Source: Deltaproteobacteria bacterium | Lineage (GTDB): Bacteria > Desulfobacterota > BSN033 > UBA1163 | Direction: 5' to 3' | NCBI GenBank assembly: GCA_018333535.1 | Contig: JAGXTA010000071.1 | Span: 99,100-163,099 of the forward strand | DNA: 64,000 nt | Shown: positions 11,991-53,095 of the stretch, piece after piece | Position numbering within the stretch: position 1 is the stretch's first letter | Layout: each line of letters begins with the position of its first letter | Translations under genes and position numbers: made by a program | The notes under the pieces: generated by a model | What the model was told of the DNA's origin: nothing | What the model saw: only the letters and a program-made list of their open reading frames with translations | Database searches by the model: none

Positions 11991-11996
11991 GGAAGC

Positions 11997-12190: not shown

Positions 12191-12194
12191 AGGA

Positions 12195-24919: not shown

Positions 24920-25267
24920 TTAAAACATCCCTAAAAAATCTTCAAGGAACTTCTTTCCTTTATGGTCAAGTTCGTCAAACTTAATACCTGCCTCATTTTC
25001 TTTCTGAGACGCCCAGATAACCTCTCCCTTTCCTTTCAGTCTAAAAAAATCTTCATACGTCTCAAAAAATATTTCTTTTCCTGAACGAAAAATATCCTTA
25101 GTTATTAAAGGGTTATCCGCCTTTAATTTAAATCCGCCACGGGATATATTCTGAACCCATCCAAGCATTATGGGTTCCATATCAGATGTTCGAATGGATA
25201 CCTTTGTTTCCAGATTGACTCTCGGATATTCCCGTCTCTCAGATTGGCCATCCTGGGCAATTTCCAT
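24920..25267 (-). CDS. PilZ-domain protein (putative c-di-GMP receptor)
   Basis: 115 aa; RxxxR (ERREYPRV) and N/DxSxGG (NISRGGF) PilZ motifs. Confidence 0.7.
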   Translation of the reverse strand: MEIAQDGQSERREYPRVNLETKVSIRTSDMEPIMLGWVQNISRGGFKLKADNPLITKDIFRSGKEIFFETYEDFFRLKGKGEVIWASQKENEAGIKFDELDHKGKKFLEDFLGMF

Positions 25268-25403
25268 TTTTTATCCCTTCGTAAAAAAGAGGTTTTTTAA
25301 ATTTTAATTAATCGATATTTATTAAGCAATTAATATGCCAAATAATTTCAGAGCTTTCAATAAAGACTACAAGAGAATTCGATAAAACCTTGAATCCAAA
25401 AAA

Positions 25404-25452
25404 GCGCCCCTGGCCCGACTCGAACGGGCGGCACACGGATTAGGAATCCGTT
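25404..25452 (+). repeat. attL: 49-bp direct repeat identical to the 3' part of tRNA-Arg(CCT)
   Basis: gcgcccctggcccgactcgaacgggcggcacacggattaggaatccgtt at 25404-25452 matches 34810-34858, which is inside the tRNA gene on the minus strand. Confidence 0.85.
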
Positions 25453-25580
25453 TTAGGCGCTTTCCTTTAAATTCCCACCGATTCCTTTTAATACATAATT
25501 TCCCTTGACATTCAATAATTTACCTGATACTATCTTTCCTATGAGTTCCTTTTGCTACCCTTTGCTTAATGACCGTTTTG

Positions 25581-25696
25581 GGGGACAGGTGGGGGACAAA
25601 ATTAAACGAATAATAATCCGTGTCCCAAAATTTCGTTTCAAAAAGCACATGGATAAATAATCCGTTCCCCATTTCCGGGGGACAGTGGGGGACAAC
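25581..25696 (+). promoter_or_regulatory. direct repeats between attL and int (candidate integrase arm-type binding sites)
   Basis: ggggacaggtgggggacaa (25581) and ggggacagtgggggacaac (25677); also ataatccgtgtccc (25611) and ataatccgttcccc (25658). Confidence 0.45.
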
Positions 25697-25722
25697 CAAA
25701 TCTATATCAAAGGAGAAAGGCC

Positions 25723-26922
25723 ATGTCAAGACGGAAAGCGACGGAGTTTGAGGGCGTGAGATACCGGAGCCATCCGAGCCGGAAGCATGGGATCAAGAAT
25801 GATCAGTATTTCTCCATCCGTTACCGAGTGGACGGGAAGAGAGTCGAGGAGGGTTTGGGGTGGGCCAGCAAGGGGATGACGGCAAAGAAGGCAGCGCTTC
25901 AGCTTGCAGAGCTTCAAGAGGCGCACAGGAAGGGGACAGGTGAACCTGTAACCCTTCGAGAGAAACGGAAGATTGCCAGGGCAAAGAGAGGGAAGCAAGA
26001 GAAACAGGGGATCACATTCGGAGATTATTTCATCAATACTTTCATTCCACAGGCTGTCATTGAAAAACCGAGGGAAACGAAAGATAAAAAATCCCACTAT
26101 GAACACTGGATCAAGCCGGTAATGGGCGCCCTTCCCTTCCCGGAGATCGGCGTCCTTGAATTAGAGAGGGTCAAGACAAACATGTTGACCGCTGGTAAGG
26201 CTCCCCGAACGATTCAATATGTGTTTTCAACAATTCGGCGGGTATGGAATGATGCAAAATTGAAGGGGATCGTATCAGAGGAAAGTCCGACCCGGAAGAT
26301 CAAACTGGACCGCTTCGATAACAAGCGGGCCAGGTATTTCACCCATGATGAGGCGGAAAAATTCTTGACCGAACTGAAAAAGAGAAATGGTTCGTTATGG
26401 GATATGGCTCTCGTTTCTCTTCAATCGGGCCTTCGCTTCAGTGAAATTGCGAACCTGAGATACGGGGATATTGACCTAAAGAGAAATATCATTGGGATCC
26501 GGGACAGCAAGGGAGGTTTTTCAAGATATGCCCGAATGACCGAAGAGGTCAGGAATGTTTTTTCAAGAATGGAGCCCGGGGCCAGGGAAGCCCTCATTTT
26601 CCATGATGCCGATGGAATGAGGATCAAGAGGCCGTCGAAAATTTATATGAAGGTCATAGACGGCCTGGGATTCAATAACGGCGTAACAGACCGGCGACAA
26701 CGATTGACATATCACTCTTTGCGACATACATATGCAAGCTGGCTTGTAGATCGGGGAGTCGGGCTGTATGATGTTCAAAAACTTCTCGGTCATAAGAACA
26801 GCCAACTAACCGAGCGATACAGCCATTTATCAGATACCCGGCTGGACAATGACGTGAGGGAATTCGAAAAAGGAATCAAGCAGGCCCGGAGAGGTAAGGT
26901 CGTTGCAATAGGAAAGCGTTAA
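25723..26922 (+). CDS. tyrosine-type site-specific integrase (phage integrase family)
   Basis: 399 aa; C-terminal catalytic region LTYHSLRHTYASWLVDRGVGLYDVQKLLGHKNSQLTERYSHL (R..HxxR..Y). Confidence 0.9.
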   Translation: MSRRKATEFEGVRYRSHPSRKHGIKNDQYFSIRYRVDGKRVEEGLGWASKGMTAKKAALQLAELQEAHRKGTGEPVTLREKRKIARAKRGKQEKQGITFGDYFINTFIPQAVIEKPRETKDKKSHYEHWIKPVMGALPFPEIGVLELERVKTNMLTAGKAPRTIQYVFSTIRRVWNDAKLKGIVSEESPTRKIKLDRFDNKRARYFTHDEAEKFLTELKKRNGSLWDMALVSLQSGLRFSEIANLRYGDIDLKRNIIGIRDSKGGFSRYARMTEEVRNVFSRMEPGAREALIFHDADGMRIKRPSKIYMKVIDGLGFNNGVTDRRQRLTYHSLRHTYASWLVDRGVGLYDVQKLLGHKNSQLTERYSHLSDTRLDNDVREFEKGIKQARRGKVVAIGKR

Positions 26923-27015
26923 ATTGAAAATGGGGAAATAGGCGGGCCAGCCGACAAGCCGGGAACCCTACCCGGTTTTTCCCCATTCACTACAAGGGCA
27001 GCGAAGGGGGCTGAG

Positions 27016-27597
27016 ATGGAAAAGACAGGATGGTTGGAAAATTTCTTGGAGCCATTGGAGAGGAGAGCTAATGAAATTTTAAAGACTCAATCGAATATTA
27101 AAGAGGACTCCAATTTTAAAAAACTGAATAAGGGGAAAGGTGTCTCTCGGTGGCAAGCCAATCCAAAATATCAAAGTGCGAAAGATCTTTTAAAACAGAT
27201 ACAATCTTTTAAAGAACTTATTTTAAAAAATGGAACACCGAGGGACGTTATCTATAAATTAACATGGATACTCGGAATCGCCTATGATATGGGCTGGCCG
27301 GTCCCAAGCCAATATGTGATCGGGCGCTCTAAAGGCGGGAAAGCCCCAAAGAAAAAAAAGGGAATCCTTTTAGCGATTAAATGGGCAAGGGAAAAGAGCA
27401 AACAAAAGAGTGCGCGGGGTTTATGGAATTATTTTAAAAATAAAAACTTTGAAAAAGACGAGTATGAAGTCTATTTCTATCAAGATCCGACCGGCGCGGG
27501 TGAAGATCTTCTTTGCCAAAAAATCGACAGTATAGAGAAAGGGTCTATCAAATTCGAGGCATTTAAAAAATACGTTTACAATAAAAATAATGGGTAA
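27016..27597 (+). CDS. hypothetical protein (integrative-element cargo)
   Basis: 193 aa, Lys-rich, no recognisable domain; followed by an intrinsic terminator. Confidence 0.45.
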   Translation: MEKTGWLENFLEPLERRANEILKTQSNIKEDSNFKKLNKGKGVSRWQANPKYQSAKDLLKQIQSFKELILKNGTPRDVIYKLTWILGIAYDMGWPVPSQYVIGRSKGGKAPKKKKGILLAIKWAREKSKQKSARGLWNYFKNKNFEKDEYEVYFYQDPTGAGEDLLCQKIDSIEKGSIKFEAFKKYVYNKNNG

Positions 27598-27635
27598 GTA
27601 AGCCGCTTTCTTACCTTTCCCGAATGTTATATTGA

Positions 27636-27670
27636 CCTCCAGAGAATCAAATTTTCCTGGAGGTTTTTTT
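27636..27670 (+). terminator. intrinsic terminator
   Basis: Hairpin cctccag-N14-ctggagg followed by TTTTTTT. Confidence 0.6.
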
Positions 27671-27901
27671 ATGAGGAAAACAGCAGTTGATCTTTCGGGC
27701 CTAAAGTCCAAATGGGGCTCTACCGTCGTCGCGCGGGAGGAAATTCGTAATTTTTCCGGGGGAGCGATTTCCGAGAAGTATGTTGCTAATCTGGATTCTC
27801 AGGGCCGGGGGCCTTCTGGGCGATTTCGATGCGGCCGCAAGATTTTATACCCGGTCGATGATTTGATCCGATGGCTCGAGGCTCGTTCGGAGGTTGCTTA
27901 G
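27671..27901 (+). CDS. Xis/AlpA-like helix-turn-helix DNA-binding protein (putative excisionase/regulator)
   Basis: ORF track 27632..27901 includes the terminator; the likely start is MRKTAVDL at 27671. C-terminal ...KILYPVDDLIRWLEAR resembles excisionase/AlpA HTH proteins. Confidence 0.5.
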   Translation: MRKTAVDLSGLKSKWGSTVVAREEIRNFSGGAISEKYVANLDSQGRGPSGRFRCGRKILYPVDDLIRWLEARSEVA

Positions 27902-28022
27902 ATGAGTCTCACGAATGACGATACGATAAAAGACTTCCAAATCGTGGACTTTCCCGAAGAACTAAAGGCGCAGGTTAGCGCTGTGATCCTTACAGCATTC
28001 TTCCGGGAGAAGGAGAACGGGC

Positions 28023-30245
28023 GTGGACAACAATCAGAATAATTTCCCCCCCCATCTCCAACGATTTCTTTCCAAATTACAGAAAGTCAAATACATCGGC
28101 AGTGGCCGCCACATGGCAATTTGTCCTGCTCACGATGATGGACAAGCTTCCCTGAGCATCTCACAGGGGGATGACGGTCGAGTGCTGCTAAAATGTTTTG
28201 CCGGGTGCGCGGCGCAAGACGTGATGGAGGCCCTCGGTTTGGAGATGAAGGACCTTTTTCCACCCAAGGAGGAGGGGGTATCCTCTCCCTCTCCCCCGAA
28301 AAGGCGTGCAACCGTGCAACCGTCCTGTCAAGTATCTGAAAATACTAAGAATGAACTGGTTGCAGTACCGGAAGGGTTGCATACAACCGGTTCGCAGGGC
28401 TGCACTCTACAGCAGTACGCCACCCTGAAGGGATTGCCCATTTCTTTTCTTCGGGAGCTTGGACTTTCTGATGTCAAATATATCGGGAAGGCCGCGGTAC
28501 GAACACCTTACTTTAATGCTAAACAGGAGGAGATTTCGGTTCAGTACAGAATCGCACCGGATGGGAATAATAAATTTCGCTGGAGAAAGGGATCGAAGCC
28601 CTGCCTGTATGGGACAAATCGTGATTACAAGTCGAACGGAAAGGTGATCATAGCTGAAGGGCCATCCGATGCACAGACACTTTGGAACGCCGGTTTCTCT
28701 GCCCTGGGGTTGCCCTCTGCGGACGGTTGGAAAGAGGAAAGGGATGCTACTTTGTTGGATGGAATCACTTCTATATTTGTTGTGATCGAACCGGATCAGG
28801 GTGGAGTTGCCGTCCAAAAGTGGTTGGCCACCTCTCGTATCCGTCACCGCGTCCGACTGCTGAGTTTTGATGGATACAAAGACCCTTCTGCACTTTATCT
28901 CCATGACCGCGAGAACTTTAAAACCAATATGCAGAAAGCTATGGCGAAAGCTATCCCATGGACAGAAGTGGAGGCCAGGCAGAATAAAGAAGAGAGGGAT
29001 AAAGCCTGGGCAATGTGTAAATCTCTGGCAGAGGATCCCGACATCCTGTCTTTATTTGTCGAGAAAATTAAAGGGATGGGGGTTGCAGGGCAAGAGAAAG
29101 AGGTTCAGATTCTATACCTCATGTTGACCAGTAGACATCAGAAGAGGCCTGTTTCAGGCGTTGTAAAGGGTCAGTCGGCAGGCGGGAAGAGTTATATCGT
29201 TGAAAAAGTTAAGAAGTTTTTTCCCGCATCTTCCTATATTGAGTTGACGGGGATGTCTGAGCACTCCTTAGCTTACGGAGAGGAATCCCTTTCAAATCGG
29301 TTTCTCATTATATTCGAGATCATGGGAATTTCAAATGATATTGCAAACTATCTGTTGCGCTCTCTTCTTTCAGAAGGTCGGGTTTTATACGAGACTGTTG
29401 AACCAGATTCTACCGGCAAACTGAGGGTGAGACGGATTGAGCGACAAGGACCAACCGGTACTATTATCACTACCACTCAAATTCAAATCCACCCTGAAAA
29501 CGAAACAAGACTATTATCGATCAACATTTCAGATTCACAAAAACAAACAAAAGACATTATGGTTGCCCTATCCGCTGAGGAAGAGGAGCCTGATTTGAGC
29601 GCTTGGCAAGCACTGCAAACATGGATTGATTTTGAAGAACATAAGGTGGTGATCCCTTATGCCGAGAATCTGGCAAGGCTGATTCCTCCCGTTGCGGTCA
29701 GGCTTCGGCGGGACTTTACTCAGGTGCTGAATTTGATCAGGAGCCACAGCATATTGCACCAGGCGAATAGAGGGCGGGATTCCAAGGGGAGAATTATTGC
29801 CGAGGTTAGAGATTATGCCATAGTGAGGGAGCTAACTTCCGAGATCATATCTGAGGCTATCGGATCAACAGTCTCTTCCAGAATCCGTGAAGTGGTTGCT
29901 GCGGTAAACACCATCATTACAGGGACAGACTTGGAACCCGGAAAGCCCTCTGCAACCGTACAGGCCATTGCAACCTCTTTAAAAAAGGATAAATCTACGG
30001 TCTGGAGGCAAGTTATGGCAGCCAGAAAAAGAGACTATTTGGTAAATAACGAGAAAGTAAAGGGAAAACCTGCGCAGATAGTGCTCGGAGACCCTTTACC
30101 TGACGACCTGGTTATCCTTCCAAATCCCGAAATGTTGAACGGTTGCACGGTTGCAGTCGTTTCCGAGGGAGGGGGTAGGGACGACCTCGCTACCACTAAA
30201 AATGGACGTTACGAGGTGATGAACGATGGACAACTCACTTATTGA
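28023..30245 (+). CDS. DnaG-type primase (zinc finger + Toprim) fused to a C-terminal P-loop NTPase
   Basis: 740 aa; zinc-binding CPAHDDGQASLS...CFAGC; Toprim residues VIIAEGPSDA and FVVIEPDQGG; Walker A GQSAGGKSY in the C-terminal half. Confidence 0.65.
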   Translation: MDNNQNNFPPHLQRFLSKLQKVKYIGSGRHMAICPAHDDGQASLSISQGDDGRVLLKCFAGCAAQDVMEALGLEMKDLFPPKEEGVSSPSPPKRRATVQPSCQVSENTKNELVAVPEGLHTTGSQGCTLQQYATLKGLPISFLRELGLSDVKYIGKAAVRTPYFNAKQEEISVQYRIAPDGNNKFRWRKGSKPCLYGTNRDYKSNGKVIIAEGPSDAQTLWNAGFSALGLPSADGWKEERDATLLDGITSIFVVIEPDQGGVAVQKWLATSRIRHRVRLLSFDGYKDPSALYLHDRENFKTNMQKAMAKAIPWTEVEARQNKEERDKAWAMCKSLAEDPDILSLFVEKIKGMGVAGQEKEVQILYLMLTSRHQKRPVSGVVKGQSAGGKSYIVEKVKKFFPASSYIELTGMSEHSLAYGEESLSNRFLIIFEIMGISNDIANYLLRSLLSEGRVLYETVEPDSTGKLRVRRIERQGPTGTIITTTQIQIHPENETRLLSINISDSQKQTKDIMVALSAEEEEPDLSAWQALQTWIDFEEHKVVIPYAENLARLIPPVAVRLRRDFTQVLNLIRSHSILHQANRGRDSKGRIIAEVRDYAIVRELTSEIISEAIGSTVSSRIREVVAAVNTIITGTDLEPGKPSATVQAIATSLKKDKSTVWRQVMAARKRDYLVNNEKVKGKPAQIVLGDPLPDDLVILPNPEMLNGCTVAVVSEGGGRDDLATTKNGRYEVMNDGQLTY

Positions 30246-30489
30246 TGGATGTCTCGAAGAGATCGGCAAAGGATACAGGCCGGGCCTGCTGCCGTGGCTG
30301 AAACAGCAGCCAGCCCGATGGCGACGGCTGCTGAACCTGGAGGACGCAATCAATAAGGCGGCGCTTGGGGGCGGTCAGGTAGGGTTGACGGCGGCACTGT
30401 CCGAGTACAAGGACTTCTTCCGGGAGATGGTGACGGCGTACGAAATGAGTAACACATTTCCATTATTCGAAGGCAGGGCAAATGAGTAA
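30226..30489 (+). CDS. hypothetical small protein
   Basis: 87 aa ORF overlapping the neighbours by a few codons. Weak support. Confidence 0.3.
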   Translation: MDNSLIDGCLEEIGKGYRPGLLPWLKQQPARWRRLLNLEDAINKAALGGGQVGLTAALSEYKDFFREMVTAYEMSNTFPLFEGRANE

Positions 30490-31303
30490 ACACCGAAAGA
30501 CAATAACCATCCAGGAAACAGCATATTCAATCCTGGCTGCTCATAATCCAATGACTGTCCGGCAGGTCTATTATCAGCTGGTTTCCAGACAAGTCATAGA
30601 AAATAACCGCGGCCAGTATCAGGCCGTCTCAAATGCTTTGGTTCAGGCGAGACAAGAGGGATTCATCCCATGGGAATGGATCGAGGACAGAACGAGACGA
30701 CCAAGGTCGGTCAGTATGTGGGACAACTTATCTGATTTTGGCTATACAGTTCTTTCTTCATATCGCCGCGACGTGTGGGATTCTCAACCTCATTATATTG
30801 AGGTATGGCTGGAGAAGGATGCGCTCTCAGGGATATTCGAGGGTGTACTGGAACCCTACGGAGTGACCTTGAATGTAGGCAGAGGATATGACGGCTGGGA
30901 CTCCATCCATAATGCAGCTGAGCGTTTCAATGATGGGGACGGAATGACTATCCTTTACTTTGGCGATTTCGATCCGTCCGGAGAGGACATGGCACGGTCC
31001 CTAAAAGAGAGATTAGCCTTTTTTAAGTCAAGTCCGGAAATCCTGAAAGTGGCGTTAACCTACGGGGACATAACCCGTTACAACCTGCCTCCCGACTTCA
31101 CCAAAGTAGGGGATACCAGACAAAAAAATTTCGTTGCCAAGTATGGAAATGTGGCTGTTGAGCTTGACGCTTTACCTATCGATATTCTCCGAGATCGGAT
31201 AGTTAGGGAAGTGGAGGCACGGATGGACCTGAATGCACTGGCAGGGGTGAAGCTGATTGAAGATGTAGAGAGAGAGGAACTGGCAAGGGCATTGGGGCGG
31301 TGA
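30482..31303 (+). CDS. Spo11/TopoVI-A-like protein (5Y-CAP tyrosine motif + Toprim)
   Basis: 273 aa; TVRQVYYQLV (RxxYY catalytic-tyrosine motif), IEVWLEKDALSGIF (Toprim Glu motif), ILYFGDFDPSGEDM (DxDPxG Toprim motif). Motif order and spacing match type IIB topoisomerase A / JetD-like folds. Confidence 0.55.
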   Translation: MSKHRKTITIQETAYSILAAHNPMTVRQVYYQLVSRQVIENNRGQYQAVSNALVQARQEGFIPWEWIEDRTRRPRSVSMWDNLSDFGYTVLSSYRRDVWDSQPHYIEVWLEKDALSGIFEGVLEPYGVTLNVGRGYDGWDSIHNAAERFNDGDGMTILYFGDFDPSGEDMARSLKERLAFFKSSPEILKVALTYGDITRYNLPPDFTKVGDTRQKNFVAKYGNVAVELDALPIDILRDRIVREVEARMDLNALAGVKLIEDVEREELARALGR

Positions 31304-31416
31304 TAACAGTGCGGGTCCTTCCTGGAGGTTTGGCGGTGAGACTGCGCTGCCCGCGATATTCGAGAGGGAGTGAAAATTTTTTTGACTTGACGTTTTACTT
31401 TAGCTATCAATAATGA

Positions 31417-31746
31417 GTATCCGAGGAGGGTTACCTGAAACTCGTCACTCAGGCTAAATTTGCAAAATTAAAAGGTGTCTCCAGACAGCGGGTCGGCCAG
31501 TGGGTCCGGGATGAGATCATCGAGCTGAGGGGTGGCAAGATTGATCCTATACAGGCGGATAGCGATCTTAACAACCGTCTCGATCATTCAAAGCGGCTTG
31601 ATTGGGAGTTTACCAATTTAAAGCCACCAGTTCCATTCAAGAAGATCTCTACTTTTGAGATACCAGACCTGGAATTGGATTTTAGCGCTTATTTTAAAAA
31701 AAGAGCTCTCAAAAATAAGAGAACGAAGAAAGATCGGGGGCGGTGA
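31417..31746 (+). pseudogene. HTH DNA-binding protein gene lacking a canonical start (possible frameshift relative to ATG at 31413)
   Basis: Frame encodes ...LKLVTQAKFAKLKGVSRQRVGQWVRDEIIEL... (HTH) but has no in-frame ATG/GTG/TTG. An ATG at 31413 opens a different frame (MSIRGGLPETRHSG*). Confidence 0.35.
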
Positions 31747-31846
31747 TCCTTCGGTCACACCGGTTGGTGACTATAAATCTCTTCTTGCCCGGTTGAAGCG
31801 CGGTGGCGGTGGAAACTGGCTTTAAAAAAATCAGAGGAGGATCGAA

Positions 31847-32407
31847 ATGGAAATGACGATCAAAACATTTGCTGAGCGTGAAGGAATGAATGTGGTGACG
31901 GTGGAAGAGGCCATCCAGCTGGGGATCCTTCCCATTACAGTGGACGGTTTGATTCCAGTGGATCAAGTCCAAGGGCATTTAGAATGCCTTGAACGGAATG
32001 AAAAAGAGGCCCGGGTTGCACCGATTCGGGAGGAAGTTGAGAGCCGGATATCGGGACGCCGGTCCTATTCAACCTCATTGAAGCCGAACCCGGGAGATAG
32101 TGTGGGGGAGAAAATTTCTTCTTCACGTTTCCATTCAGTCTTTCCGGAATCCCGTCCATTGGGAGAATTTTTCAGTCCAGAAGGTAAGGCGGCTTTTGAG
32201 AAGGCGGCTGCATCCGGCCAAATCCGGATCCTCCAAAAAACGGGTAGCATGAGCGTGGCCTCTTCGTCTTCTCCCCTGGAGGAGAGGGCAAAGCAGACTT
32301 GGAATAGGGATGCCGATATTCGGGAGGAATTCAAAAACAATTTTGCTTCTTATCTCGCTTTTCTCAAACAGAGCGAGGCAGGAAATGTTCGGATCTTTCG
32401 GAAATAA
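31847..32407 (+). CDS. hypothetical protein (integrative-element cargo)
   Basis: 186 aa ORF, no recognisable domain. Confidence 0.4.
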   Translation: MEMTIKTFAEREGMNVVTVEEAIQLGILPITVDGLIPVDQVQGHLECLERNEKEARVAPIREEVESRISGRRSYSTSLKPNPGDSVGEKISSSRFHSVFPESRPLGEFFSPEGKAAFEKAAASGQIRILQKTGSMSVASSSSPLEERAKQTWNRDADIREEFKNNFASYLAFLKQSEAGNVRIFRK

Positions 32408-32469
32408 ATTTTGTTCTTAGACGTATGGCAAAGATTTTTCAGTCTCGAAGCGAAAGGAGGTAAGAAAAA

Positions 32470-32697
32470 ATGGCTAACTACGAGCAAAACGTTTGGTATC
32501 AAGGAGGCGACGACGCATTGGCATTGAACGAAGCGCTCCGGACTGCCTGGTCAGAAAGACCTGCCCTGAGATCTGCCTTTGCTTCTTTGGATCAGTTTTT
32601 GGCGGTGAATCGTGTCGCCTTTGCGGCTGAGGCGGAATCTACAGGTAAAAGGTTTAGGGAAATTATTGGATACTTTCCGGTTGTTGAAAATCCGTAG
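32470..32697 (+). CDS. hypothetical small protein
   Basis: 75 aa ORF. Confidence 0.3.
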   Translation: MANYEQNVWYQGGDDALALNEALRTAWSERPALRSAFASLDQFLAVNRVAFAAEAESTGKRFREIIGYFPVVENP

Positions 32698-32762
32698 AAG
32701 AAAGGAGCGGTTATGACTAAATTGGAAGAGAAGAGGAACATTCTCTTTGAGAAAAAAAAGTT

Positions 32763-33278
32763 GTGGATGAAAAAAGACTTTCTCTCTCCAGTTTGAAAGG
32801 TCGGCAGGATAAGATGATCGCTGATTTGGCCGACAAAAAGTTTCAGCTTGAAACGGCGATGATGGAGCACCAAAGATTACAGGGCGAAGTTTCATTGGGC
32901 CAGGCTCCCGAGAAAGATCTCTTTCGGGTGGCAAAGGAGATCGAGGAGTTGAAGCTCCAGATCCAGGAGCTCGAGTTACTCAATTCGTCCTTTCCGAAAG
33001 CGAGAGATTCCCTGGAGACGGAGATCCGGAAGGCTGAAAATATTTGCCAGGGACTGACCCATGACTTTTGGTATCACATCATGGAGCTGGAAAAGGAAAA
33101 AGCAAAGGGTAATACCGCGCTCTTGAGGGCATGGGCCGCGTTTAATCTGTCAGGCGGAGGGGCTTCGTTCGGCCAGTTCCTTTCGAAGCACTTTAATTCT
33201 TACTTTGTTGAAGACGTTGAAAAAATATCGAAAGAACTTGAGGCCGAGTATTTAAAAGGAGGTGATCGGAATGGTTGA
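32763..33278 (+). CDS. hypothetical coiled-coil protein
   Basis: 171 aa, heptad-rich (LQIQELELLNSS...). An A8 tract at 32751-32758 just upstream, plus an overlapping alternative start at 32713 in another frame. Confidence 0.4.
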   Translation: MDEKRLSLSSLKGRQDKMIADLADKKFQLETAMMEHQRLQGEVSLGQAPEKDLFRVAKEIEELKLQIQELELLNSSFPKARDSLETEIRKAENICQGLTHDFWYHIMELEKEKAKGNTALLRAWAAFNLSGGGASFGQFLSKHFNSYFVEDVEKISKELEAEYLKGGDRNG

Positions 33279-33465
33279 TGTGAATTTGACAGCGATTTTT
33301 GGCGAGGTTTTTCAGGATGCCGATGCATTGAAGGCCATGGCAAAGGTTTTGAGCCGGCAACCGGAATCAATAAGAGACCGGATCATTAACGAATTGGCGT
33401 TGGCGACAAATATTACCGGAAAAGCATGGCGAGATAGAATGCGGGCATTGACCAGTAAGAGATAG
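33262..33465 (+). CDS. hypothetical small protein
   Basis: 67 aa ORF overlapping the previous gene's end. Confidence 0.3.
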   Translation: MIGMVDVNLTAIFGEVFQDADALKAMAKVLSRQPESIRDRIINELALATNITGKAWRDRMRALTSKR

Positions 33466-33560
33466 GTTCTCTGTAAATAAGACAACGCCCTCCAAGTATA
33501 ACCTTGTCCATTTTTAGACAAGGTCAGTAAGAGATAGGTTCTCTGTAAATGAGACAACGC
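33451..33560 (+). repeat. two ~36-bp direct repeats flanking a hairpin (iteron-like)
   Basis: cagtaagagataggttctctgtaaat[a/g]agacaacgccc at 33452 and 33523; the hairpin accttgtc-cattttta-gacaaggt lies between them. Confidence 0.6.
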
Positions 33561-34053
33561 CCGCGACCGAGGCGTGTATCGGCGACGATATCCATTCCTC
33601 TTTCCGAAGTAGTACCCTGGTCGGCGGTGATCCGGCCAGGGGAAGATCGGGACAACCCTTGTCATGAAAAGATGGCCTATCAGAAAAAAAAAGGAAAGCC
33701 TTCCGGACCCTCTTCCAGATCCGGGCAACTGGGGCCTTCGCTTTCTATTTTTTGAGGTTTTAAGCGAACTCCTCACCTTTTTAAAATCGAGGAATGGGAA
33801 GGGAAATATCTCTCTCCCTGGTTCTCACCGGGAGGCTAAAAGAGAAGTGATCGATAGGGGGATCACCCTTCAGGGGCTTGGAATTCGATCATGCGTCGAT
33901 GATCTTTCCGATTCATTACAGGCTAATGAGAGGTGGGCGGTCATCAATGGCAGGCCTACAAGGGTTAAGGTGAATTAAGAAAAACGGCTGTTTTTTGGAA
34001 GGTGCTTTTCGAAAGTTGCCCGGGGGTGTGCCTGGAGACGGACCCGAGAGAAT

Positions 34054-34518
34054 TCATCGAAGAGGGGATCGAAGAGTTGATTGACTTTTTAAATTATATT
34101 GAGTTTGCCATGCTCCAGGGGAAGCTCCCCTTTTGTAGGTGGGCTTTTGAGGTAAGATTGTGATACATCTATCTAAGGCGTTGATATATTGAACTTGTTC
34201 AATGGCAATAAGGGACCTTGAATCCTTTCTATTTTTATCACCTTCTTTCTGCCTTTCCTTCTCTTTCTGGTATTTGATTTCACTTATTACCGCCGTCCTT
34301 GTCGGTATATCCTCATTCTCCCTTGCCTGAGCTTTCACCTTTTCCACGATTTCGGGGTGCTTGGCGATGGCTTGGGCATGATGTAGTCGCTTATGTGATA
34401 TCCCTATTTTTTCATGTCGTGCCTTACCATCACGATGACCTTTGGGGATACCTTGATATTTTTCTGGAGGGATTTTTTCTGCCAGCTCCCCAATCCCCGC
34501 ACCAATATCCAGAAGCAT
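34054..34518 (-). CDS. hypothetical protein at the right end of the integrative element
   Basis: 154 aa; N-terminal MLLDIGAGIGELA; basic, Lys/Arg-rich middle. No confident family. Confidence 0.35.
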   Translation of the reverse strand: MLLDIGAGIGELAEKIPPEKYQGIPKGHRDGKARHEKIGISHKRLHHAQAIAKHPEIVEKVKAQARENEDIPTRTAVISEIKYQKEKERQKEGDKNRKDSRSLIAIEQVQYINALDRCITILPQKPTYKRGASPGAWQTQYNLKSQSTLRSPLR

Positions 34519-34810
34519 CTCTCAGGCTGGATCGCAAAAGGGGGAGATGGATTAATGAGAATATACCGGAGGGGGGAGCTAAGGGAATTGGAGTGCGACT
34601 AAAAACAGTCACACTCTCTAATGCAGGCATAGGCAGGAACGAAAGCCCGATACTAAGGGGATTGGCCGAGTCGCAGTCCATACGGGCGGAGGAGGTGAAC
34701 CAAATGGGAGTCTATAAGACCGTTCATGGCGGGGGACAGATGGGGGATAAACCGTGTTGGGCCAGGAAAATAAAAAAGGCTTGAAACCCTCCAAGCCTTG
34801 ATAGTCTAAG

Positions 34811-34884
34811 CGCCCCTGGCCCGACTCGAACGGGCGGCACACGGATTAGGAATCCGTTGCTCTATCCACCTGAGCTACAGGGGC
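34811..34884 (-). tRNA. tRNA-Arg (anticodon CCT)
   Basis: rc reads GCCCCTGTAGCTCAGGTGGATAGAGCAACGGATTCCTAATCCGTGTGCCGCCCGTTCGAGTCGGGCCAGGGGCG. Cloverleaf with anticodon loop TTCCTAA and T-loop TTCGAGT; no encoded CCA. Confidence 0.85.
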
Positions 34885-35149: not shown

Positions 35150-35374
35150 CTATTTGGACTCAACTATTTGACCTGTCATCTTGTCAATGGTCACTTCAAC
35201 AAAATCCATTCTTTCCATATTCCAATCATTCCCTAAAAACTTTTTCACCCAATTCATGATCGATTCAGGGGTGATTCGTTGAGGGTCTTTTCTTCTTTCG
35301 GGGAGAATCCCAATTAAATGACGTTGGTCCTCTTGGTTGTGATGGTAGAATTCATAAGCCAATATATGTTCCAT
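35150..35374 (-). CDS. small conserved protein, paralog of 49433..49618
   Basis: 74 aa; shares YEFY...HL[IV]GILPERRK[DE]PxRIT.ESI.NWVKK with the 61-aa ORF at 49433. Located 12 nt downstream of the degenerate-kinase gene. Confidence 0.5.
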   Translation of the reverse strand: MEHILAYEFYHHNQEDQRHLIGILPERRKDPQRITPESIMNWVKKFLGNDWNMERMDFVEVTIDKMTGQIVESK

Positions 35375-35386
35375 ATTTCTTATCCC

Positions 35387-36244
35387 TTAATTGACCGATG
35401 GATAATAAACGACCTTCCTTCTCTCTACTGGAAATCTTAAAGTGATTAATGTCCTTCCCTTTTGGCCATCTATTCCAAATTCCATCACCCCTTGATTTTT
35501 TTTGACCATTTCGTCAATGAGTCTTAACTCAAAATCAAGGGTTTCTTTCTTTTCTGGGGAAGGGTCTTTGATGATGGGTCCAAATTGTTCTATCGTTTTT
35601 CTATAACCATCAAAGAGGACCGATATTTCAATATATTTTCCTTCCGCGAAGGATGGAGCGCTGACCTCTCCATGCTGCTTCTGATGGATAAACAATCTGG
35701 TCATAAAGCCAACCCCTCCATTGACAGGGATCCATCTTATGGCATACTTAAGGGTAGAGTCTAAAATATATTTCAAATGTTCATCTGGAGTGATGGTTTC
35801 GGGAAGGTCTTCTTTAAAATTTTTAAACACTCGAATCTTCTTTTCAGACATTTGGGTTTGGTTGTTCTTTAGCACATTTTCGATGAGGGCGTGTACCGTA
35901 TTTATTTTTGTTTCCGTGGAATTGACCTTGAGGTAATTCAGAACAGAGCTCAGGAGCAGATCGACCTTCCCGATCTCCTCATTGAGAATATGATGAAAAT
36001 GATCATCGAAGGTCTTATCGTTAAATTTTCCTCGGGATATTTGCGTAAAATATTTGATGGATTCCAGTGAATGGTCAATGCGTTGAATCAATTCGATGAG
36101 AAGAGAGGATTTGAATGAACCATGCAGCTCATTTGCCATCATCAGTTTTTTAAATTCGAGTGAGCCAGGATCACCCTTATCGGATTGAGGAAAAATAGAA
36201 TGGAATAAATCATTCTGGGGATTAAAAATAGAATTATTTTTCAT
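35387..36244 (-). CDS. degenerate histidine-kinase-like protein (HisKA/HATPase-like, lacks N-box and G-box residues)
   Basis: 285 aa; clear paralog of the C-terminal half of 10419..11990 (KFND, FTQ, F.K.DLPETI...YAI..IP..G..GF.T, RTLITLRFPVERRKV). The phospho-His position appears to be Gln (LIQRIDHSL vs LVHRIKNPL). Confidence 0.6.
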   Translation of the reverse strand: MKNNSIFNPQNDLFHSIFPQSDKGDPGSLEFKKLMMANELHGSFKSSLLIELIQRIDHSLESIKYFTQISRGKFNDKTFDDHFHHILNEEIGKVDLLLSSVLNYLKVNSTETKINTVHALIENVLKNNQTQMSEKKIRVFKNFKEDLPETITPDEHLKYILDSTLKYAIRWIPVNGGVGFMTRLFIHQKQHGEVSAPSFAEGKYIEISVLFDGYRKTIEQFGPIIKDPSPEKKETLDFELRLIDEMVKKNQGVMEFGIDGQKGRTLITLRFPVERRKVVYYPSVN

Positions 36245-36811
36245 ATATTATTTGGTTCTTATCCACTAAGATAAAAGCAATTTTGATACCACATTTGAGG
36301 TGGGATCCCAACTATTGATAATCATTCTATTATCGATTTATTCTGAACACTTTAAGGGTCTTAATGGTGGAAAATATTTTCCAGTTTGTCCCGATAAATT
36401 ACCACTAAAAAGTGAAAATGTTTTCCTATCCCTCATCCAAAAAGGTCTGGATAGCGGATTGGGAAGCTTCACGGCCTCGGCCTGGAGGGGGGGATCGAGT
36501 TTATGAGAAATCTCAATCAGGATTGAGGAGGGGTTGGCCAAAAGAAGACCCCAGTCAGGGCCCGCAAAAGGTTCGCAAGGTTAAAGCTTAGTTAGAAAAT
36601 AAACGTCAAGGGTCAAAAGGTAAAGGCTAACCCGCCTTCCGGTAGGCAGGTTAGCCAGTTTTGTGAATGGGTTAGGTCATTGGTCTTAAAGATTTTACCT
36701 TACCACTTCACTTTGCCTAAACTGGCTTCCTAACCATAGCCTTAACCTGAAAAATTTTCATTGTTCGTGCCTGCCTGCTGTGGGCAGGCGTAACCTGACG
36801 GCCATGAAAAC

Positions 36812-39097
36812 TTACTTTAATTTCTCTAACACACTCTTCGCCTCTTCGGCTCCTGCAAACTTAGCGTCCAATTCAAGGGCTTTTTTCAGCTCCCTCTTTG
36901 CATTTTCGTTATCACCATTCTTAAGGTAAGCCATTCCAAGATGGTATCGCATGACAGGATTGTCCGTAATTTTTTCATTCGCCTCTTTCAAATAAGTAAT
37001 CGCACGGGTGAAAATATTCTTTTTGTAATAAACCCATCCGAGGGTATCCGAGATGTGGGGGTCATCCGGAAACTGTTCCTTTGCGCCTTGAGCTAAATTC
37101 AAGGCTTCATCAATATTCTCACCCTTCTCCGCATAGAGATAAGCTAGGTTATTGGCTGCAGGGGCGAATTTAGAATTAATTTTCAGGGCCTTCTGGTAGT
37201 ATTCCTTGGCCTTCTCATACTTCTTCTGAGTGTCATAGATAATGCCTAATCCCATGAGGGCAGAAAGAGAATCCGGCGCCTTCTGGAGAGCGGCACTGTA
37301 TCCCTCGATGGCCTTCTCTGTTAAATTCTGCCGGATATAAAAACTGGCAAGGGAGGTATGAAATCCTGCAACATTGGGATTGAGTTCGATCGCCTTTTTA
37401 TAATTCGTTTCTGCCTGGTCCGCCTCTTTATTTACCTCGTAAAGACGACCCAGCATATTGTAGAAAAAAGGATTTTGTGGAGAAGCCTTAATCTGTGCTT
37501 CCACCCTCTCCAATGCCTTTTTGCTCTCTTTCTGGTTCATGTAGACGACGGCAATGAGATTAAGCGCCTCTAAAAAATTTGGCTGGAGGGACAATGCCTT
37601 CTCAAATTGGGGTAATGCATCCTTCTCCCTCTTTTGCACCAAAAGGATTCGTCCTTTATGGAAATATCCGACTGGATTATTGGGCGCGATCTGAATGACT
37701 TCTTCAAAAGACTTGCTGGCTTTCGGGATATCCCTCTTCAGGAGATAGATGTTTCCAAGGATCAGATGGGCCTGGATCGATTTAGGGTCTCGTTTCAAAA
37801 TCTCCTGTGCTTCCTCAATGGCTAAATCTAAAGCCCCTGTCCTGAGATGGATATCTGCAAGCAGCAATCTCCCTTCAATCCAATTGGGGTTCAGTTTAAC
37901 CGCCTCGGCCAGCACCGTCTTTCCCTGCTGGATATCCCTGTTGCCGAGATGGGCAAGGCCGAGGAAGTGATGGGCCATAAAAGATTTTGGATTATCTTTG
38001 AGGTAAGACTGAAATAAATTAATGGCATCATTGAATTCAGTCTTGACCAGATAGAGGCGGCCCTTGAGGAATATTCCTTCATCGCTTTTGGGATTGATCT
38101 CAAGGATTTTCGCAACCATCTCAGAGGCCTTATCAAACTTACGATCATTAAGGTGGACTTCGGCCAGTTTAGCCCTTGCAGGAATATTTTTCGAATCCAC
38201 CTCGAGCGCCTTCTGGTAGGCCTCAATGGCCTTCTCTTTCTTCCCCCAGATTAAATAGAAGTCTCCCAGATGGATGTGAGAAAGGACCTTCTTGGGATCT
38301 ACTTCGATAGATTTGATGAATTGTTTTTCTGCATCCTCCATTTTCCTTAAAGAAACGTAGAAATTTCCCAAGGCAATGTAAGTATTTCGGTCTTTAGGTT
38401 CGATTTTAATCACCTCAATCAGTTCAGCCTCAGCCAACTCGGCTTTCCCTGTTCTCCGATAGAATTCAGCCAGTCCATATCGAGCCTTTGTCGATTTTTC
38501 ATCGACCTGGATGGCCTCTTTGAATGTCTGTTCTGCCTTAGCAAAATCCTTCTTCATAATATAAAGGTTGGCTAAATGGAGATGGGCTTCAATCTTCTTG
38601 GGATCTTGTTCGATCGCCTTCTTCGCCTCCTCAATGGCCTTGTCCAGATTCCTATCCACAGTATAGATGGAGCTCATGAGCAGACGGCCCGAGGCATTGT
38701 TTGGATCTTTTGCTAGGATCTTTTCGGCCTGTTCTTTTGCCTTCTGGGGGTCTCTTGACAGGAGAAAGAGATTTCCAAGCTGAAGTCTCGCTTCAATTAA
38801 ATCGGGGTTTAACTCAATACTTTTCGAAAACTCAGAAAAAGCCTCCCGAAACTCTCTCACTCCTAAGTGGGTGAGCCCGAGTTTGTAACGGGCCTCGGCA
38901 TTCTTGGGTTCGATCTGAAGAACATTCTTGTATTCGATCATGGCTTCTTTGAATTTGTTTTGCGCGAAATACTTCTCTCCCCTCTTCCAGTGCTTCTCCT
39001 TTTTTGCTTCCTTGCTGCAACCCGATAATCCGGACAGAATGAAGCAAAAAAGAATGATAAAAACAAAAACCGATCTCCTCTTATTTAAAAAGTCCAT
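36812..39097 (-). CDS. TPR-repeat lipoprotein (PEP-CTERM system PrsT-like)
   Basis: 761 aa; signal peptide and lipobox (ILSGLSGCSKE), then >15 TPR repeats throughout. Confidence 0.7.
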   Translation of the reverse strand: MDFLNKRRSVFVFIILFCFILSGLSGCSKEAKKEKHWKRGEKYFAQNKFKEAMIEYKNVLQIEPKNAEARYKLGLTHLGVREFREAFSEFSKSIELNPDLIEARLQLGNLFLLSRDPQKAKEQAEKILAKDPNNASGRLLMSSIYTVDRNLDKAIEEAKKAIEQDPKKIEAHLHLANLYIMKKDFAKAEQTFKEAIQVDEKSTKARYGLAEFYRRTGKAELAEAELIEVIKIEPKDRNTYIALGNFYVSLRKMEDAEKQFIKSIEVDPKKVLSHIHLGDFYLIWGKKEKAIEAYQKALEVDSKNIPARAKLAEVHLNDRKFDKASEMVAKILEINPKSDEGIFLKGRLYLVKTEFNDAINLFQSYLKDNPKSFMAHHFLGLAHLGNRDIQQGKTVLAEAVKLNPNWIEGRLLLADIHLRTGALDLAIEEAQEILKRDPKSIQAHLILGNIYLLKRDIPKASKSFEEVIQIAPNNPVGYFHKGRILLVQKREKDALPQFEKALSLQPNFLEALNLIAVVYMNQKESKKALERVEAQIKASPQNPFFYNMLGRLYEVNKEADQAETNYKKAIELNPNVAGFHTSLASFYIRQNLTEKAIEGYSAALQKAPDSLSALMGLGIIYDTQKKYEKAKEYYQKALKINSKFAPAANNLAYLYAEKGENIDEALNLAQGAKEQFPDDPHISDTLGWVYYKKNIFTRAITYLKEANEKITDNPVMRYHLGMAYLKNGDNENAKRELKKALELDAKFAGAEEAKSVLEKLK

Positions 39098-48813: not shown

Positions 48814-49432
48814 GCTTTATGAGGTAATAGAATAAATTGAGTGGTGTTGATTAACAAATTGAAATTACAGCATATTCTCGGTTTTTTCCTAAGAAATATT
48901 TGGGTATCAGTTTTGACAAGAATAACAAATTTGCAGCTATATTGAACTTTTCAGAATTAAAAATTTCCATGCAAGGACATTTTGTCATTTTTTTTCTTCC
49001 AGCAGGCTCTCTTGAAGGCACAGCGGGAGTTCTCACGGGTGGCGGGAAGGGGTTGGGGTATTCGGAGGCGAAGATGGCGCGGTAGCTTGGGGTGATCGGT
49101 TCTTATGGGACAAGGATTGTGGCCGAGCGGCAACTGTCGGAAGGGGTGAGATAAAGGTATAAAAAATATCTGATCAATCGGTTTGGAACAACGATACCTG
49201 TAAAAAAACGGAAATCTTTACAAAATCATTTGAATAAATACTTTCATATTATCAAATGGTTAGAAATATAATTGATCAACTTGTCAAGATTTCTTACAAA
49301 TCTCAATGTGTTCTGAAAATTAACAAAAGAAAAAACCCTAACGAAACAATAACTTCCTTTCCTTTCTTAAATCGGCATGAAAATTGTAGATAATATATAT
49401 GATTTTGAGGTGATGATCCTGTTGAGGCGAGT

Positions 49433-49618
49433 ATGTTGGTTTATGAATTTTACTGGCGCGGTGACATTGGGGATACCCATCTGGTTGGAATATTACCTGA
49501 GAGAAGAAAAGAACCCACCCGAATTACCGACGAATCGATTATTAATTGGGTGAAAAAGGTTATTGGGGATGAAATAAGAGCCAATGACATCTTCTTCTGC
49601 AAGGTAAACATAGAATAG
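49433..49618 (+). CDS. small conserved protein, paralog of 35150..35374
   Basis: 61 aa; YEFYWRGDIGDTHLVGILPERRKEPTRITDESIINWVKK. Followed by a strong terminator. Confidence 0.5.
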   Translation: MLVYEFYWRGDIGDTHLVGILPERRKEPTRITDESIINWVKKVIGDEIRANDIFFCKVNIE

Positions 49619-51277: not shown

Positions 51278-52042
51278 TTACTTTTTCATCCTCTTCCTAA
51301 CAAAGTACCCAAGGCCGATGAGGCCTGAGCCGAGAAGGAGAAGGGTGCTGGGTTCAGGCACAGATACAGAACCTGAATCATAAATAGCATATAACCCATG
51401 ACCATTGAATGATATGAGCACTTCTGAACGAGGGTCACTGAGAAGAATATCAAGTGCATTATTTCCATTATTTTGGTATAAGTGGTCTACTCCTGCGAAT
51501 ATTGGATGAGAGCTGCTTATTTCAATATTTCCCTGAACACCGTTATAGAAAGAACCAAACCCCAAACCGAAATAGTTTAAGAAGGTATTCCATCGCGCAG
51601 CTTCGTCTACCGGTCCGCCCCATCCTGTACCACCTGCAAGATATACATTACCGCCAGCGTTTACATAGTTAATAAGCACAGTGTTATCTGCAGAATCTCC
51701 GGCAATAAAAACACCGTCATAAGTTAAAAGTGTCGCCAGATTGAATGTGATCCCCATTGTCACATTCCAAGTATGACCAGCAGTTGTCATTGTAGATGCC
51801 AAGTGAGATCCTGTTAGACCGAAATTTGATGAGTAAGCAAGGAAATTACCAGGGGAGCCTCCGGTGAACCATTTAGCGACATTATTAACATAGGTTGCGG
51901 GGTCGTTAATTGGATTAACAGTAAATCCATAGTTGGTCAACTGCCATTCATCATTCGCAAGCACTATCTTTCCAGCCTGCGCACCAGAAGTCGACAACAG
52001 ACAGATAAACAACGCAGTAAAACAAGCTAATATCGTCTTCAT
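51278..52042 (-). CDS. PEP-CTERM domain protein (exosortase substrate)
   Basis: Likely start MKTILACFTALFICLLSTSGAQA (signal peptide). C-terminal VPEPSTLLLLGSGLIGLGYFVRKRMKK. Last ~90 nt of CDS plus ~140 nt of 3' flank are nearly identical to 60400-60560. Confidence 0.8.
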   Translation of the reverse strand: MKTILACFTALFICLLSTSGAQAGKIVLANDEWQLTNYGFTVNPINDPATYVNNVAKWFTGGSPGNFLAYSSNFGLTGSHLASTMTTAGHTWNVTMGITFNLATLLTYDGVFIAGDSADNTVLINYVNAGGNVYLAGGTGWGGPVDEAARWNTFLNYFGLGFGSFYNGVQGNIEISSSHPIFAGVDHLYQNNGNNALDILLSDPRSEVLISFNGHGLYAIYDSGSVSVPEPSTLLLLGSGLIGLGYFVRKRMKK

Positions 52043-52320
52043 AATTTCCTCCTTTCTATTGTAATTGCTTTTAATTTTAGCATGAATCATACCAAAACCA
52101 AATTAACCCGGTAATTGTTTGCAACCTATTAATTTATTTAAATAATTAAATAAAAACACAAAGAATATTCAAGGTCCACCCAAGCCCCATTTTTTAAAGA
52201 ATTGTAAAATAATTTTACAAAATCAATTCCATTCATCCCAATTGTACTAAATATAAATTAATTCAATATGTTATAACAAAATCAATCCGAATTAAAAATG
52301 TAAGCGTTTACGACATAAAT

Positions 52321-52907: not shown

Positions 52908-53095
52908 TATACCTAATTACCGTTGCCTGGCGCCATTTTCGTTTCGAGCGGCATCTGTCGGAAGAGGTTAGATTAAGATATCAAGATGGCTAGGCACGTT
53001 CCGCACGAACGTCTCCCATTTCTGAAATTTAAATGGTATTGACATTTGCCATTTGGCATTTTATTATGGCAATAATAAAAGAGGAGGTTTTTGCT

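Follow-up and report, generated by a model that had tools for sequence, protein, structure and literature searches.

A predicted sigma-54-dependent operon pairing a pseudo-histidine kinase with an undescribed small protein in a PEP-CTERM/exopolysaccharide neighbourhood

Binding-type pseudo-histidine kinases, of which NifL, RetS and DivL are examples, are few and have been discovered singly. NifL is a kinase homologue without phosphorylation activity whose DH and GHKL domains alone bind the AAA+ domain of the sigma-54 activator NifA and block it, and the resulting NifL-NifA complex is modulated by a small protein, GlnK (PMC12998190). Sigma-54 also features in the PEP-CTERM system, whose genes, according to Haft et al. 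in 2006, form units of one gene each, behind long upstream regions in which an activator motif accompanies a sigma-54 site (PMC1569441). Here we describe a two-gene operon, encoding a kinase-like protein of 285 amino acids (aa) and a small protein of 74 aa, in a 64,000-nucleotide (nt) stretch of the genome of a Deltaproteobacteria bacterium (contig JAGXTA010000071.1, positions 99,100 to 163,099; hereafter the window, with positions counted from its first letter). Our leading explanation, which we regard as quite possible rather than probable, is that this is a sigma-54 operon in a PEP-CTERM/exopolysaccharide neighbourhood whose pseudokinase would bind a sigma-54 activator and so exert feedback.

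The two genes, as given by translation of their open reading frames (ORFs), are:
35387-36244, minus strand: kinase-like gene, 285 aa
35150-35374, minus strand: small-protein gene, 74 aa, of a family with the signature YEFY...GILPERRKDP.RIT..S..W

The small gene follows the kinase-like gene after 12 nt and the two form one operon, in agreement with a preliminary description of this DNA, made from the sequence alone, which had proposed an operon of a degenerate kinase-like gene and a small gene. Conservation outside the source genome, on which that proposal depended, was found for both: the 285-aa and 74-aa proteins have 446 and 461 database homologues, respectively. The nearest related loci (collected loci are designated by L numbers) belong to metagenome-assembled genomes (MAGs) of Syntrophaceae/Thermodesulfobacteriota. 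Against the orthologues in L001, L002 and L004, the ratio of nonsynonymous to synonymous substitution rates is 0.18-0.34 for both genes and about 0.2 for the small one; both genes are under purifying selection.

The 285-aa protein is clearly a soluble cytoplasmic member of the histidine-kinase fold superfamily. It has no significant match in Pfam, where HATPase_c is absent even at E values up to 1, and only weak, partial matches to AtoS-type kinases in NCBIfam; a profile of its 50-member family, however, aligns full-length with the DHp and CA core of ZraS (9jfj; E 1.2e-9). The AlphaFold (AF2) model, with a mean predicted local distance difference test score (pLDDT) of 75.7, places two long DHp helices, of the kind that build the four-helix bundle, at residues 43-70 and 77-108, followed by a degenerate alpha/beta CA-like domain (116-273) with a disordered 'ATP lid' (213-237). 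Foldseek matched this model to histidine-kinase cores only (E 3e-10 to 5e-8), including those of ZraS (3e-10), CpxA and HK853 (these three within 3e-10 to 1e-8) and the known non-catalytic relatives RetS, DivL and plant phytochrome kinase-related domains. The N-terminal 41 residues are unstructured and of low confidence, with no hydrophobic segment and no domain match, and neither a sensor or transmembrane input domain nor a PAS match was found in the protein with Pfam and NCBIfam.

Two relatives of the 285-aa protein are encoded elsewhere in the window, in a kinase-fusion-activator triad whose outer members score below the NCBIfam PrsK and PrsR cut-offs and are therefore named only PrsK-like and PrsR-like:
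8239-10422: PrsK-like kinase (score 170, cut-off 300)
10419-11990, plus strand: 523-aa AAA+/kinase-like fusion, paralog of the 285-aa protein, between the other two genes
12195-13607: PrsR-like activator (score 461.5, cut-off 502.6)

We judged the degeneracy of the 285-aa protein by alignment to the PrsK-like kinase and to ZraS. Its H-box reads IQRIDHSL against AHEIRNPL in the PrsK-like kinase, with the phospho-accepting His replaced by Gln, and across the 50 standalone family members Q, H, E and D all occur at this position. The N-box Asn aligns with a family-invariant Tyr (Tyr167), and the G1 box (DxGxG) and G2 box, which align with FDGYRK and with a non-Gly stretch, respectively, are both unrecognisable, which bears out the earlier reading that the kinase N and G boxes are lacking and that the phospho-His is Gln. 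Since the phospho-accepting His and all ATP-binding boxes are lost, the protein is a predicted pseudokinase that should be unable to autophosphorylate. It fails the defining catalytic features and should not be filed as a kinase. What the family does keep invariant is KF.D..F, NTVH, LPET, QYA and a C-terminal FP-x-ERRK-VVYY tail, which reads FPVERRKVVYY in the 285-aa protein.

Such a protein might act on another kinase, as in a RetS-like scheme in which the pseudokinase would heterodimerise through its DHp domain with the PrsK-like or another kinase and block or redirect its autophosphorylation, leaving the activator untouched. The DHp and early CA regions of the 285-aa protein are 24% identical to the PrsK-like core (E 5e-13), the kinase region of RetS, also in its DHp co-complex with GacS (7n0e), supplied some of the best structural matches, and the fusion gene of the triad overlaps the kinase gene by 4 nt. 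A 24% identity, however, says nothing for matched dimer-interface residues, and fusion of the kinase-like module to an AAA+ domain rather than to a kinase sensor favours the activator as the target; we consider the RetS-like scheme unlikely.

The homology of the 285-aa protein to the C-terminal half of the AAA+ fusion, proposed in the preliminary description, is firm: over 252 aligned residues, BLASTP found it 42% identical to residues 270-521 of the 523-aa protein (E 1e-69), and the quoted motifs (KFND, IK.FTQ, DLPETI, YAI..IP..G..GF.T and RTL..L.FP.ERRKV) were all found. The fusion protein, an identical copy of which is on record from a 'Deltaproteobacteria bacterium' MAG, consists of a sigma-54-interaction AAA+ domain (Pfam E 6e-24) and its lid (5e-14), then the kinase-like module. 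In comparison with the adjoining PrsR-like activator, it has no GAFTGA loop and its Walker B Asp is Asn; among 119 members of the fusion family, Walker A is retained, the Walker B Asp is K, R or N and GAFTGA occurs in none. At least 539 proteins have this fusion architecture. The gene order FabF, 7TM/GAF kinase, fusion, receiver/sigma-54/HTH_8 activator and receiver-HD phosphodiesterase (6992-15005 in the window) also recurs in both distant fusion loci that were checked (L086 and L087). From the number of fusions and this shared synteny it follows that the kinase-like module is repeatedly and covalently tied to a sigma-54-activator-type AAA+ domain and encoded between a kinase and an activator.

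Spo0B and ChpT are proteins composed of a DHp and a degenerate CA domain, and a phosphotransfer or phosphatase component of this type could likewise operate within a phosphorelay from kinase to activator. In the fusion family, the ATP-binding residues are absent and the N-box Asn is Tyr while the H-box His (HRIKNPL) is invariant in 119/119 members, as such a component would have it. The 285-aa protein, in contrast, has Gln, and because the position varies between Q, H, E and D in the standalone members, phosphotransfer cannot be the conserved function of its branch. A Spo0B/ChpT-type role is thus plausible for the fusion and not for the 285-aa protein, and as an account of the operon we hold it improbable. 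The fusion family itself may be an undescribed third component or a phosphotransfer element. As a separate observation, the PrsR-like activator has GAFTNA in place of the canonical GAFTGA loop, and similar single substitutions are tolerated by Desulfovibrio activators (PMC4641369).

The second line of evidence is the region upstream of the operon, which carries:
36276-36291, minus strand: predicted sigma-54 (-24/-12) promoter TGGTATCAAAATTGCT, beginning 47 nt before the ATG of the 285-aa gene
36369-36382, minus strand: proximal enhancer-like palindrome GGAAAATATTTTCC, at about -110
36413-36426, minus strand: distal enhancer-like palindrome GGAAAACATTTTCA, at about -155 relative to the expected start site

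The promoter TGGTATCAAAATTGCT matches TGGYAY-N5-TTGCW exactly. The palindromes GGAAAACATTTTCA and GGAAAATATTTTCC are spaced 44 bp, and GGAAAATATTTTCC is the sole exact GGAAA-N4-TTTCC of the window. In six aligned orthologous upstream regions with diverged flanks, GGTAT.AAA.TTGCT is invariant and both palindromes are kept; the distal one is kept in the orthologous loci L001-L005. Searching the operon and the 570 nt upstream of it against Rfam revealed neither a riboswitch nor any other RNA element. By these sequence features, the operon is predicted to be enhancer-dependent, with a sigma-54 promoter of its own.

The same architecture recurs before other genes of the small family. A scan with one genome per species gave 80 loci with 93 small-gene copies, and the pattern TGG[CT]A-N7-8-[TC]GC[AT] was found within 300 nt upstream of 43 of these copies, against about 2.5 expected (background 0.026 per 350 nt), with sites clustering near -50 and near -125. 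When all collected sequence was scanned, 39 of 194 sigma-54-like sites carried a GGAAA-N4-TTTCC-like palindrome (at most one mismatch) 55-190 nt upstream: 18 of them precede small genes, four precede operons of a kinase-like and a small gene, five an operon of a 116-aa and a kinase-like gene in another lineage, and six genes for receiver-less 342-aa activators in tandem activator pairs. In other genomes, similar palindromes are phased at -92, -113, -134 and -157 before the small-gene sigma-54 promoters. Many single-gene copies of the small family in related genomes thus share the predicted promoter and palindrome architecture.

These counts could also be read as the mark of an autoregulator, the small protein being a DNA-binding protein and the GGAAA-N4-TTTCC palindromes its operators rather than enhancers. 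The 18 of 39 palindrome-bearing sites that precede small genes and the invariant basic loop ERRKDPxR would suit that role. The positions of the palindromes, -90 to -160 and helically phased, are however those of activator enhancers; palindromes also precede receiver-less activator genes, suggesting autoregulation by the activators; and in searches with hhalign and Foldseek the small protein resembled neither AbrB-type proteins nor other DNA-binding folds. We regard an autoregulatory role as very doubtful. In the window, the search for a cognate activator returned only the PrsR-like activator and a degraded remnant at 52321-52907.

Several further observations concern sigma-54 elements. Tandem receiver-less sigma-54 activators of about 320-343 aa, with about 50% mutual identity and reminiscent of HrpR/HrpS, are encoded at a distance of about 7-9 kb from the small genes of L019, L035, L050, L052, L062, L064 and L068, and none occurs in the window; in six of these seven loci (not in L064), a GGAATTG.TTTTCC palindrome and a sigma-54 promoter stand ahead of the downstream copy. 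Within the window, a sigma-54-type promoter at 48776-48791 lies inside the annotated 5' end of a PilY1/PilC-like 806-aa ORF, whose true start is therefore probably downstream; another, at 61630-61645, is upstream of a 319-aa ORF (60467-61426), and a site with one mismatch (52079-52094) is just upstream of a PEP-CTERM gene.

The small protein has a second copy in the window, as the preliminary description had noted from the shared HL[IV]GILPERRK[DE]P.RIT.ESI.NWVKK: the two proteins are 51% identical (E 9e-22). The corresponding features are:
49433-49618, plus strand: 61-aa small paralog, standing alone
49373-49388: degenerate sigma-54-like site CGGCATGAAAATTGTA, the only such site ahead of the 61-aa paralog

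Just 3' of this paralog are group II intron RNA domains (RF02003 and RF00029; 49798-49937 and 50163-50252), with no obvious intron-encoded protein between them. An exhaustive profile search gathered the small family into 418 clusters at 50% identity, nearly all of them standalone proteins of 55-140 aa. Residues Y7, E8, F9, Y10, L20, G22, I23, L24, P25, E26, R27, R28, D30, R33, I34, S38, W42 and G48 are invariant or nearly so, and the C-terminal third is variable. AlphaFold predicted the 74-aa protein confidently (pLDDT 89.9) as beta(3-12), beta(18-25), alpha(36-47), beta(56-64) and beta(70-72). It has no signal peptide and is therefore cytoplasmic. Library searches gave no significant match for the small protein in Pfam (best E 0.24), or in NCBIfam, PHROG and PADLOC (best a PHROG family of unknown function, E 0.22); a sequence-profile search of the PDB gave E 0.69 or worse, Foldseek gave E 0.13 or higher against the PDB and 0.02 or higher against BFVD, where all matches were uncharacterised phage proteins, and no relatives were found in viral contigs. 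The small family matches no described family and is undescribed. The earlier remark that neither family is recognisable stands, then, for the small protein, which no library matched, and not for the 285-aa protein, which belongs to the histidine-kinase fold superfamily. The small domain behaves as a modular unit: natural fusions join it to PilZ in P0328, to a class I methyltransferase in P0305 and to a CxxC (zinc-ribbon) tail in P0253.

A related family of about 100 aa, here called sub2 (YKVFYKNY...GVL.ERRKDLRGK..WA.LTFG), adjoins small-family genes in about 17 loci (L035, L045, L050, L052, L062, L068, L042 and L047 among them), as a rule about 150 nt 3' of them; L037 and L074 encode it as a fusion with an ExeA-like AAA_22 ATPase, and the window lacks it. 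An invariant P-(x)-E-R-R-K stretch right after a beta hairpin is common to sub2, the small family and the C-terminal tail of the kinase-like family. That the small protein and the kinase-like C-terminus are homologous through this stretch is unproven (hhalign probability 0.06%), and a hidden Markov model of the small N-terminus aligned only the four ERRK residues with the kinase-like tail, with negative scores. The idea that the beta-beta-alpha-beta-beta fold is a swapped hairpin of the AbrB/MazE kind was also dropped (hhalign 0.5%, with no support from Pfam or Foldseek).

Pairing of the two families is restricted. A kinase-like gene lies within 10 kb in 12 of the 80 small-family loci and directly upstream in five only, the closest orthologues L001-L005, with gaps of 11-140 nt, so that the co-occurrence of the ILPERRK small protein with the DLPETI domain, which the preliminary description had put forward for checking, is not general. 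More distant standalone orthologues of the kinase-like gene (about 45% identity) are found in a housekeeping-like setting, RlmL-HolA-MurJ-DAO, and have no small gene nearby. Small genes are multi-copy, with at least six loci in each of two MAGs, and tandem copies are common (L010, L031, L038, L048, L053, L057 and L064). A Pfam census of the 149 ORFs within 2.5 kb of small genes counted nine Response_reg, eight HATPase_c and six HisKA domains, and four each of PrsT-type TPR, AAA_22 and PEP-CTERM; a dominant neighbour family was sought in this census and not found, the top two-component proteins reaching 6-9 of 149 and none exceeding about 6%. The pairing is lineage-specific and not obligate. 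A different arrangement is seen in L018, L025, L028, L029 and L034 (about 7.3-8.7 kb), where a standalone kinase-like gene is second in a sigma-54/palindrome-driven operon whose first gene encodes a 116-aa protein that is conserved (...WWE.VPEATSYVVYVANDS...); a small-family gene follows 1.4 kb downstream.

The preliminary description had also spoken of a regulatory or toxin-like pair. The regulatory half of this proposal is in keeping with the link to sigma-54 control; the toxin-like half did not survive, given the rare pairing, the multi-copy small genes and their varied neighbours. A toxin-antitoxin (TA) or other obligate selfish or defence pair would account for two small, adjacent, co-oriented genes with a 12-nt gap, in a window that holds an integrative island and TA modules elsewhere. 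Each family nevertheless occurs mostly without the other, PADLOC and PHROG had no significant match for either protein, viral contigs had none for the small family, AbrB similarity is negligible by hhalign, the operon lies outside the att repeats of the island, and sigma-54 control is atypical of TA systems. We rejected this interpretation as highly improbable.

The surroundings of the operon include the following features:
36812-39097, minus strand: upstream neighbour prsT, encoding PrsT, the TPR lipoprotein of the PEP-CTERM system (TIGR02917, 424 bits, cut-off 312)
36625-36656, minus strand: terminator-like hairpin (13-bp stem and T-rich tail) that ends prsT and separates it from the operon
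34810-34884, minus strand: tRNA-Arg(CCT), directly downstream of the small gene
34776-34799: terminator-like hairpin after tRNA-Arg(CCT)
24920-25267, minus strand: PilZ-domain gene, 115 aa, with its own sigma-54 promoter, an exact match, at 25325-25340

L001, L003 and L004 retain the order PrsT, kinase-like, small, which in L003 and L004 extends through tRNA-Arg(CCT) and PilZ to CinA; in L021, L042, L045 and L080, PrsT adjoins a small gene without a kinase-like gene. The tRNA is also found 3' of the small gene in L001-L004, and no terminator was found between the small gene and the tRNA in the window. PrsT adjacency, together with the conserved promoter and palindromes and the recurrence of the promoter before small genes, ties the operon to a sigma-54/PEP-CTERM regulatory neighbourhood, and the link to PEP-CTERM signalling suggested earlier is on this account retained. 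Neither product carries a signal peptide or a PEP-CTERM sorting tail (no TIGR02595 match).

In the window, the tRNA is parted from the PilZ gene by a 9.4-kb integrative island (25402-34858) inserted in tRNA-Arg(CCT) and bounded by perfect 51-nt direct (att) repeats (25402-25452 and 34808-34858); it encodes a phage-type integrase (25723-26922) and an int-alpA RNA (26931-26998), its other ORFs being unannotatable, and is absent from the related locus L004. The PilZ gene, which is the conserved gene after the tRNA in L003 and L004, is the ancestral downstream neighbour from before the island insertion. Further away, the sigma-54 activator remnant at 52321-52907 is frameshifted and N-terminally truncated; it stands beside a PEP-CTERM gene (51278-52090), has two AbrB/PIN-type TA-like pairs nearby (53033-53790 and 54046-54682), and its intact L004 orthologue appears receiver-less.

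The PilZ gene raises another interpretation, namely that the small protein is an adaptor of a cyclic di-GMP (c-di-GMP)/PilZ pathway for exopolysaccharide or surface-protein output and that the pseudokinase is merely co-transcribed with it. The natural small-domain fusion to PilZ, the sigma-54-driven PilZ gene ancestrally next after the tRNA, the recurrence of PilZ and HD-GYP proteins as neighbours and the fusion of sub2 to an ExeA-like AAA_22 ATPase all agree with it. PilZ neighbours occur in only about six of the 80 loci, however, the neighbour census has no dominant family, and no known c-di-GMP-binding motif was identified. The PilZ/c-di-GMP and two-component links of the small protein are suggestive but weak, and we consider the adaptor interpretation rather unlikely; it is compatible with our leading explanation.

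Under that leading explanation, the pseudokinase would work by stoichiometric protein binding and not by phosphotransfer. Its likeliest target would be the AAA+ domain of a sigma-54 activator, in the manner of NifL and NifA; the link to AAA+ is a Rosetta-stone argument, from the fusion of a paralogous module to sigma-54-type AAA+ domains in the at least 539 proteins noted above. Because the operon itself is predicted to be sigma-54-dependent, binding of the activator would feed back on the regulon, and the pseudokinase may thus damp or tune the regulon that transcribes its own gene. The small protein would serve that regulon in the cytoplasm, as an output or an adaptor, and would have become co-transcribed with the pseudokinase in this lineage only; its conserved face, formed by the YEFY aromatic strand and the PERRKDPxR basic loop, is a putative surface for binding a partner or ligand.

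Several points weigh against this explanation. NifL retains nucleotide binding, whereas the 285-aa protein is without the binding residues, and the invariant His of the fusion paralog hints at phosphotransfer in the fusion branch. No activator is assigned to GGAAA-N4-TTTCC, a palindrome found nowhere else in the window and different from the PEP-CTERM motif (motif 1 of Haft et al.), compared by its described TTTACA ending, and the kinase and activator of the window fall short of the PrsK and PrsR cut-offs. The orthologues in the RlmL-HolA-MurJ-DAO context have no sigma-54 site, and the role of the kinase-like family need not be tied to this regulon. Finally, the fold of the small protein has no informative structural match in the PDB or BFVD by Foldseek. 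A bolder extension, which we offer as speculation with a low chance of being right, is that the YEFY/PERRK small proteins, with sub2, are new 'connector' domains of sigma-54 regulons that dock onto pseudokinase/activator complexes, with P-x-ERRK stretches competing for a common site and paralogs wiring separate two-component and c-di-GMP pathways into exopolysaccharide/PEP-CTERM control in uncultured Syntrophales-like bacteria; the triad would then be an undescribed three-component architecture.

Non-catalytic kinase-like regulators in sigma-54 circuits are of a known kind, and what is new here is one that is smaller than NifL, RetS and DivL, sensorless and without nucleotide-binding residues: a minimal soluble pseudokinase tied to sigma-54 activators twice, through the AAA+ fusion in the triad and through its own predicted sigma-54 control. 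Also new are the predicted sigma-54 promoter and two upstream palindromes of the operon and their recurrence before small-family genes. The fusions and their synteny point to a widespread undescribed third component in the two-component systems by which anaerobic sediment bacteria govern exopolysaccharide and PEP-CTERM surface proteins. The small family, with about 418 clusters, adds an uncharacterised domain whose fold is predicted confidently and whose regulatory signature is clear. As the organisms are uncultured and the biochemical role is inferred, the impact is moderate for now.

Among known systems, NifL-NifA-GlnK is similar in that a kinase-like DH and GHKL protein lacks kinase activity (for the 285-aa protein, at the sequence level only), and here the paralog joins the module to a sigma-54-type AAA+ domain, and the gene for the standalone copy shares its operon with a small-protein gene. 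Unlike NifL, which binds ADP, the 285-aa protein has no PAS domains and has lost the nucleotide-binding residues; no activator gene adjoins its own, the small protein bears no relation to PII, and binding is predicted here. RetS of Pseudomonas and DivL of Caulobacter, both among the top structural matches, also use the kinase core fold for protein-protein regulation, and DivL likewise has no phospho-His; both, however, are large sensors, membrane-associated or of several domains, in which most ATP-binding motifs persist, whereas the 285-aa protein is a soluble core with its boxes lost. Spo0B and ChpT share with it a DHp-like bundle and a CA-like domain unable to bind ATP, and the fusion paralog keeps the invariant His; unlike them, the 285-aa protein has no His, and no receiver partners were identified.

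HrpV and HrpG, which act on HrpR/HrpS, and PspA, which acts on PspF, are trans-acting anti-activators of sigma-54 activators that lack regulatory domains, and the Hrp system also has a small counter-partner. There is no sequence or fold relationship to Hrp or Psp proteins and the window has no activator pair, yet the likeness to Hrp extends to the tandem receiver-less activators with a palindrome near small genes in the seven loci given above. With respect to the PrsK/PrsR/PrsT regulon of Haft et al., the small proteins differ in having neither signal peptide nor PEP-CTERM tail, the motif is GGAAA-N4-TTTCC and not TTTACA-ending, and the kinase and activator score below the family cut-offs, but the locus resembles that regulon in the layout of its units, in the adjacent PrsT and in the PEP-CTERM genes nearby.

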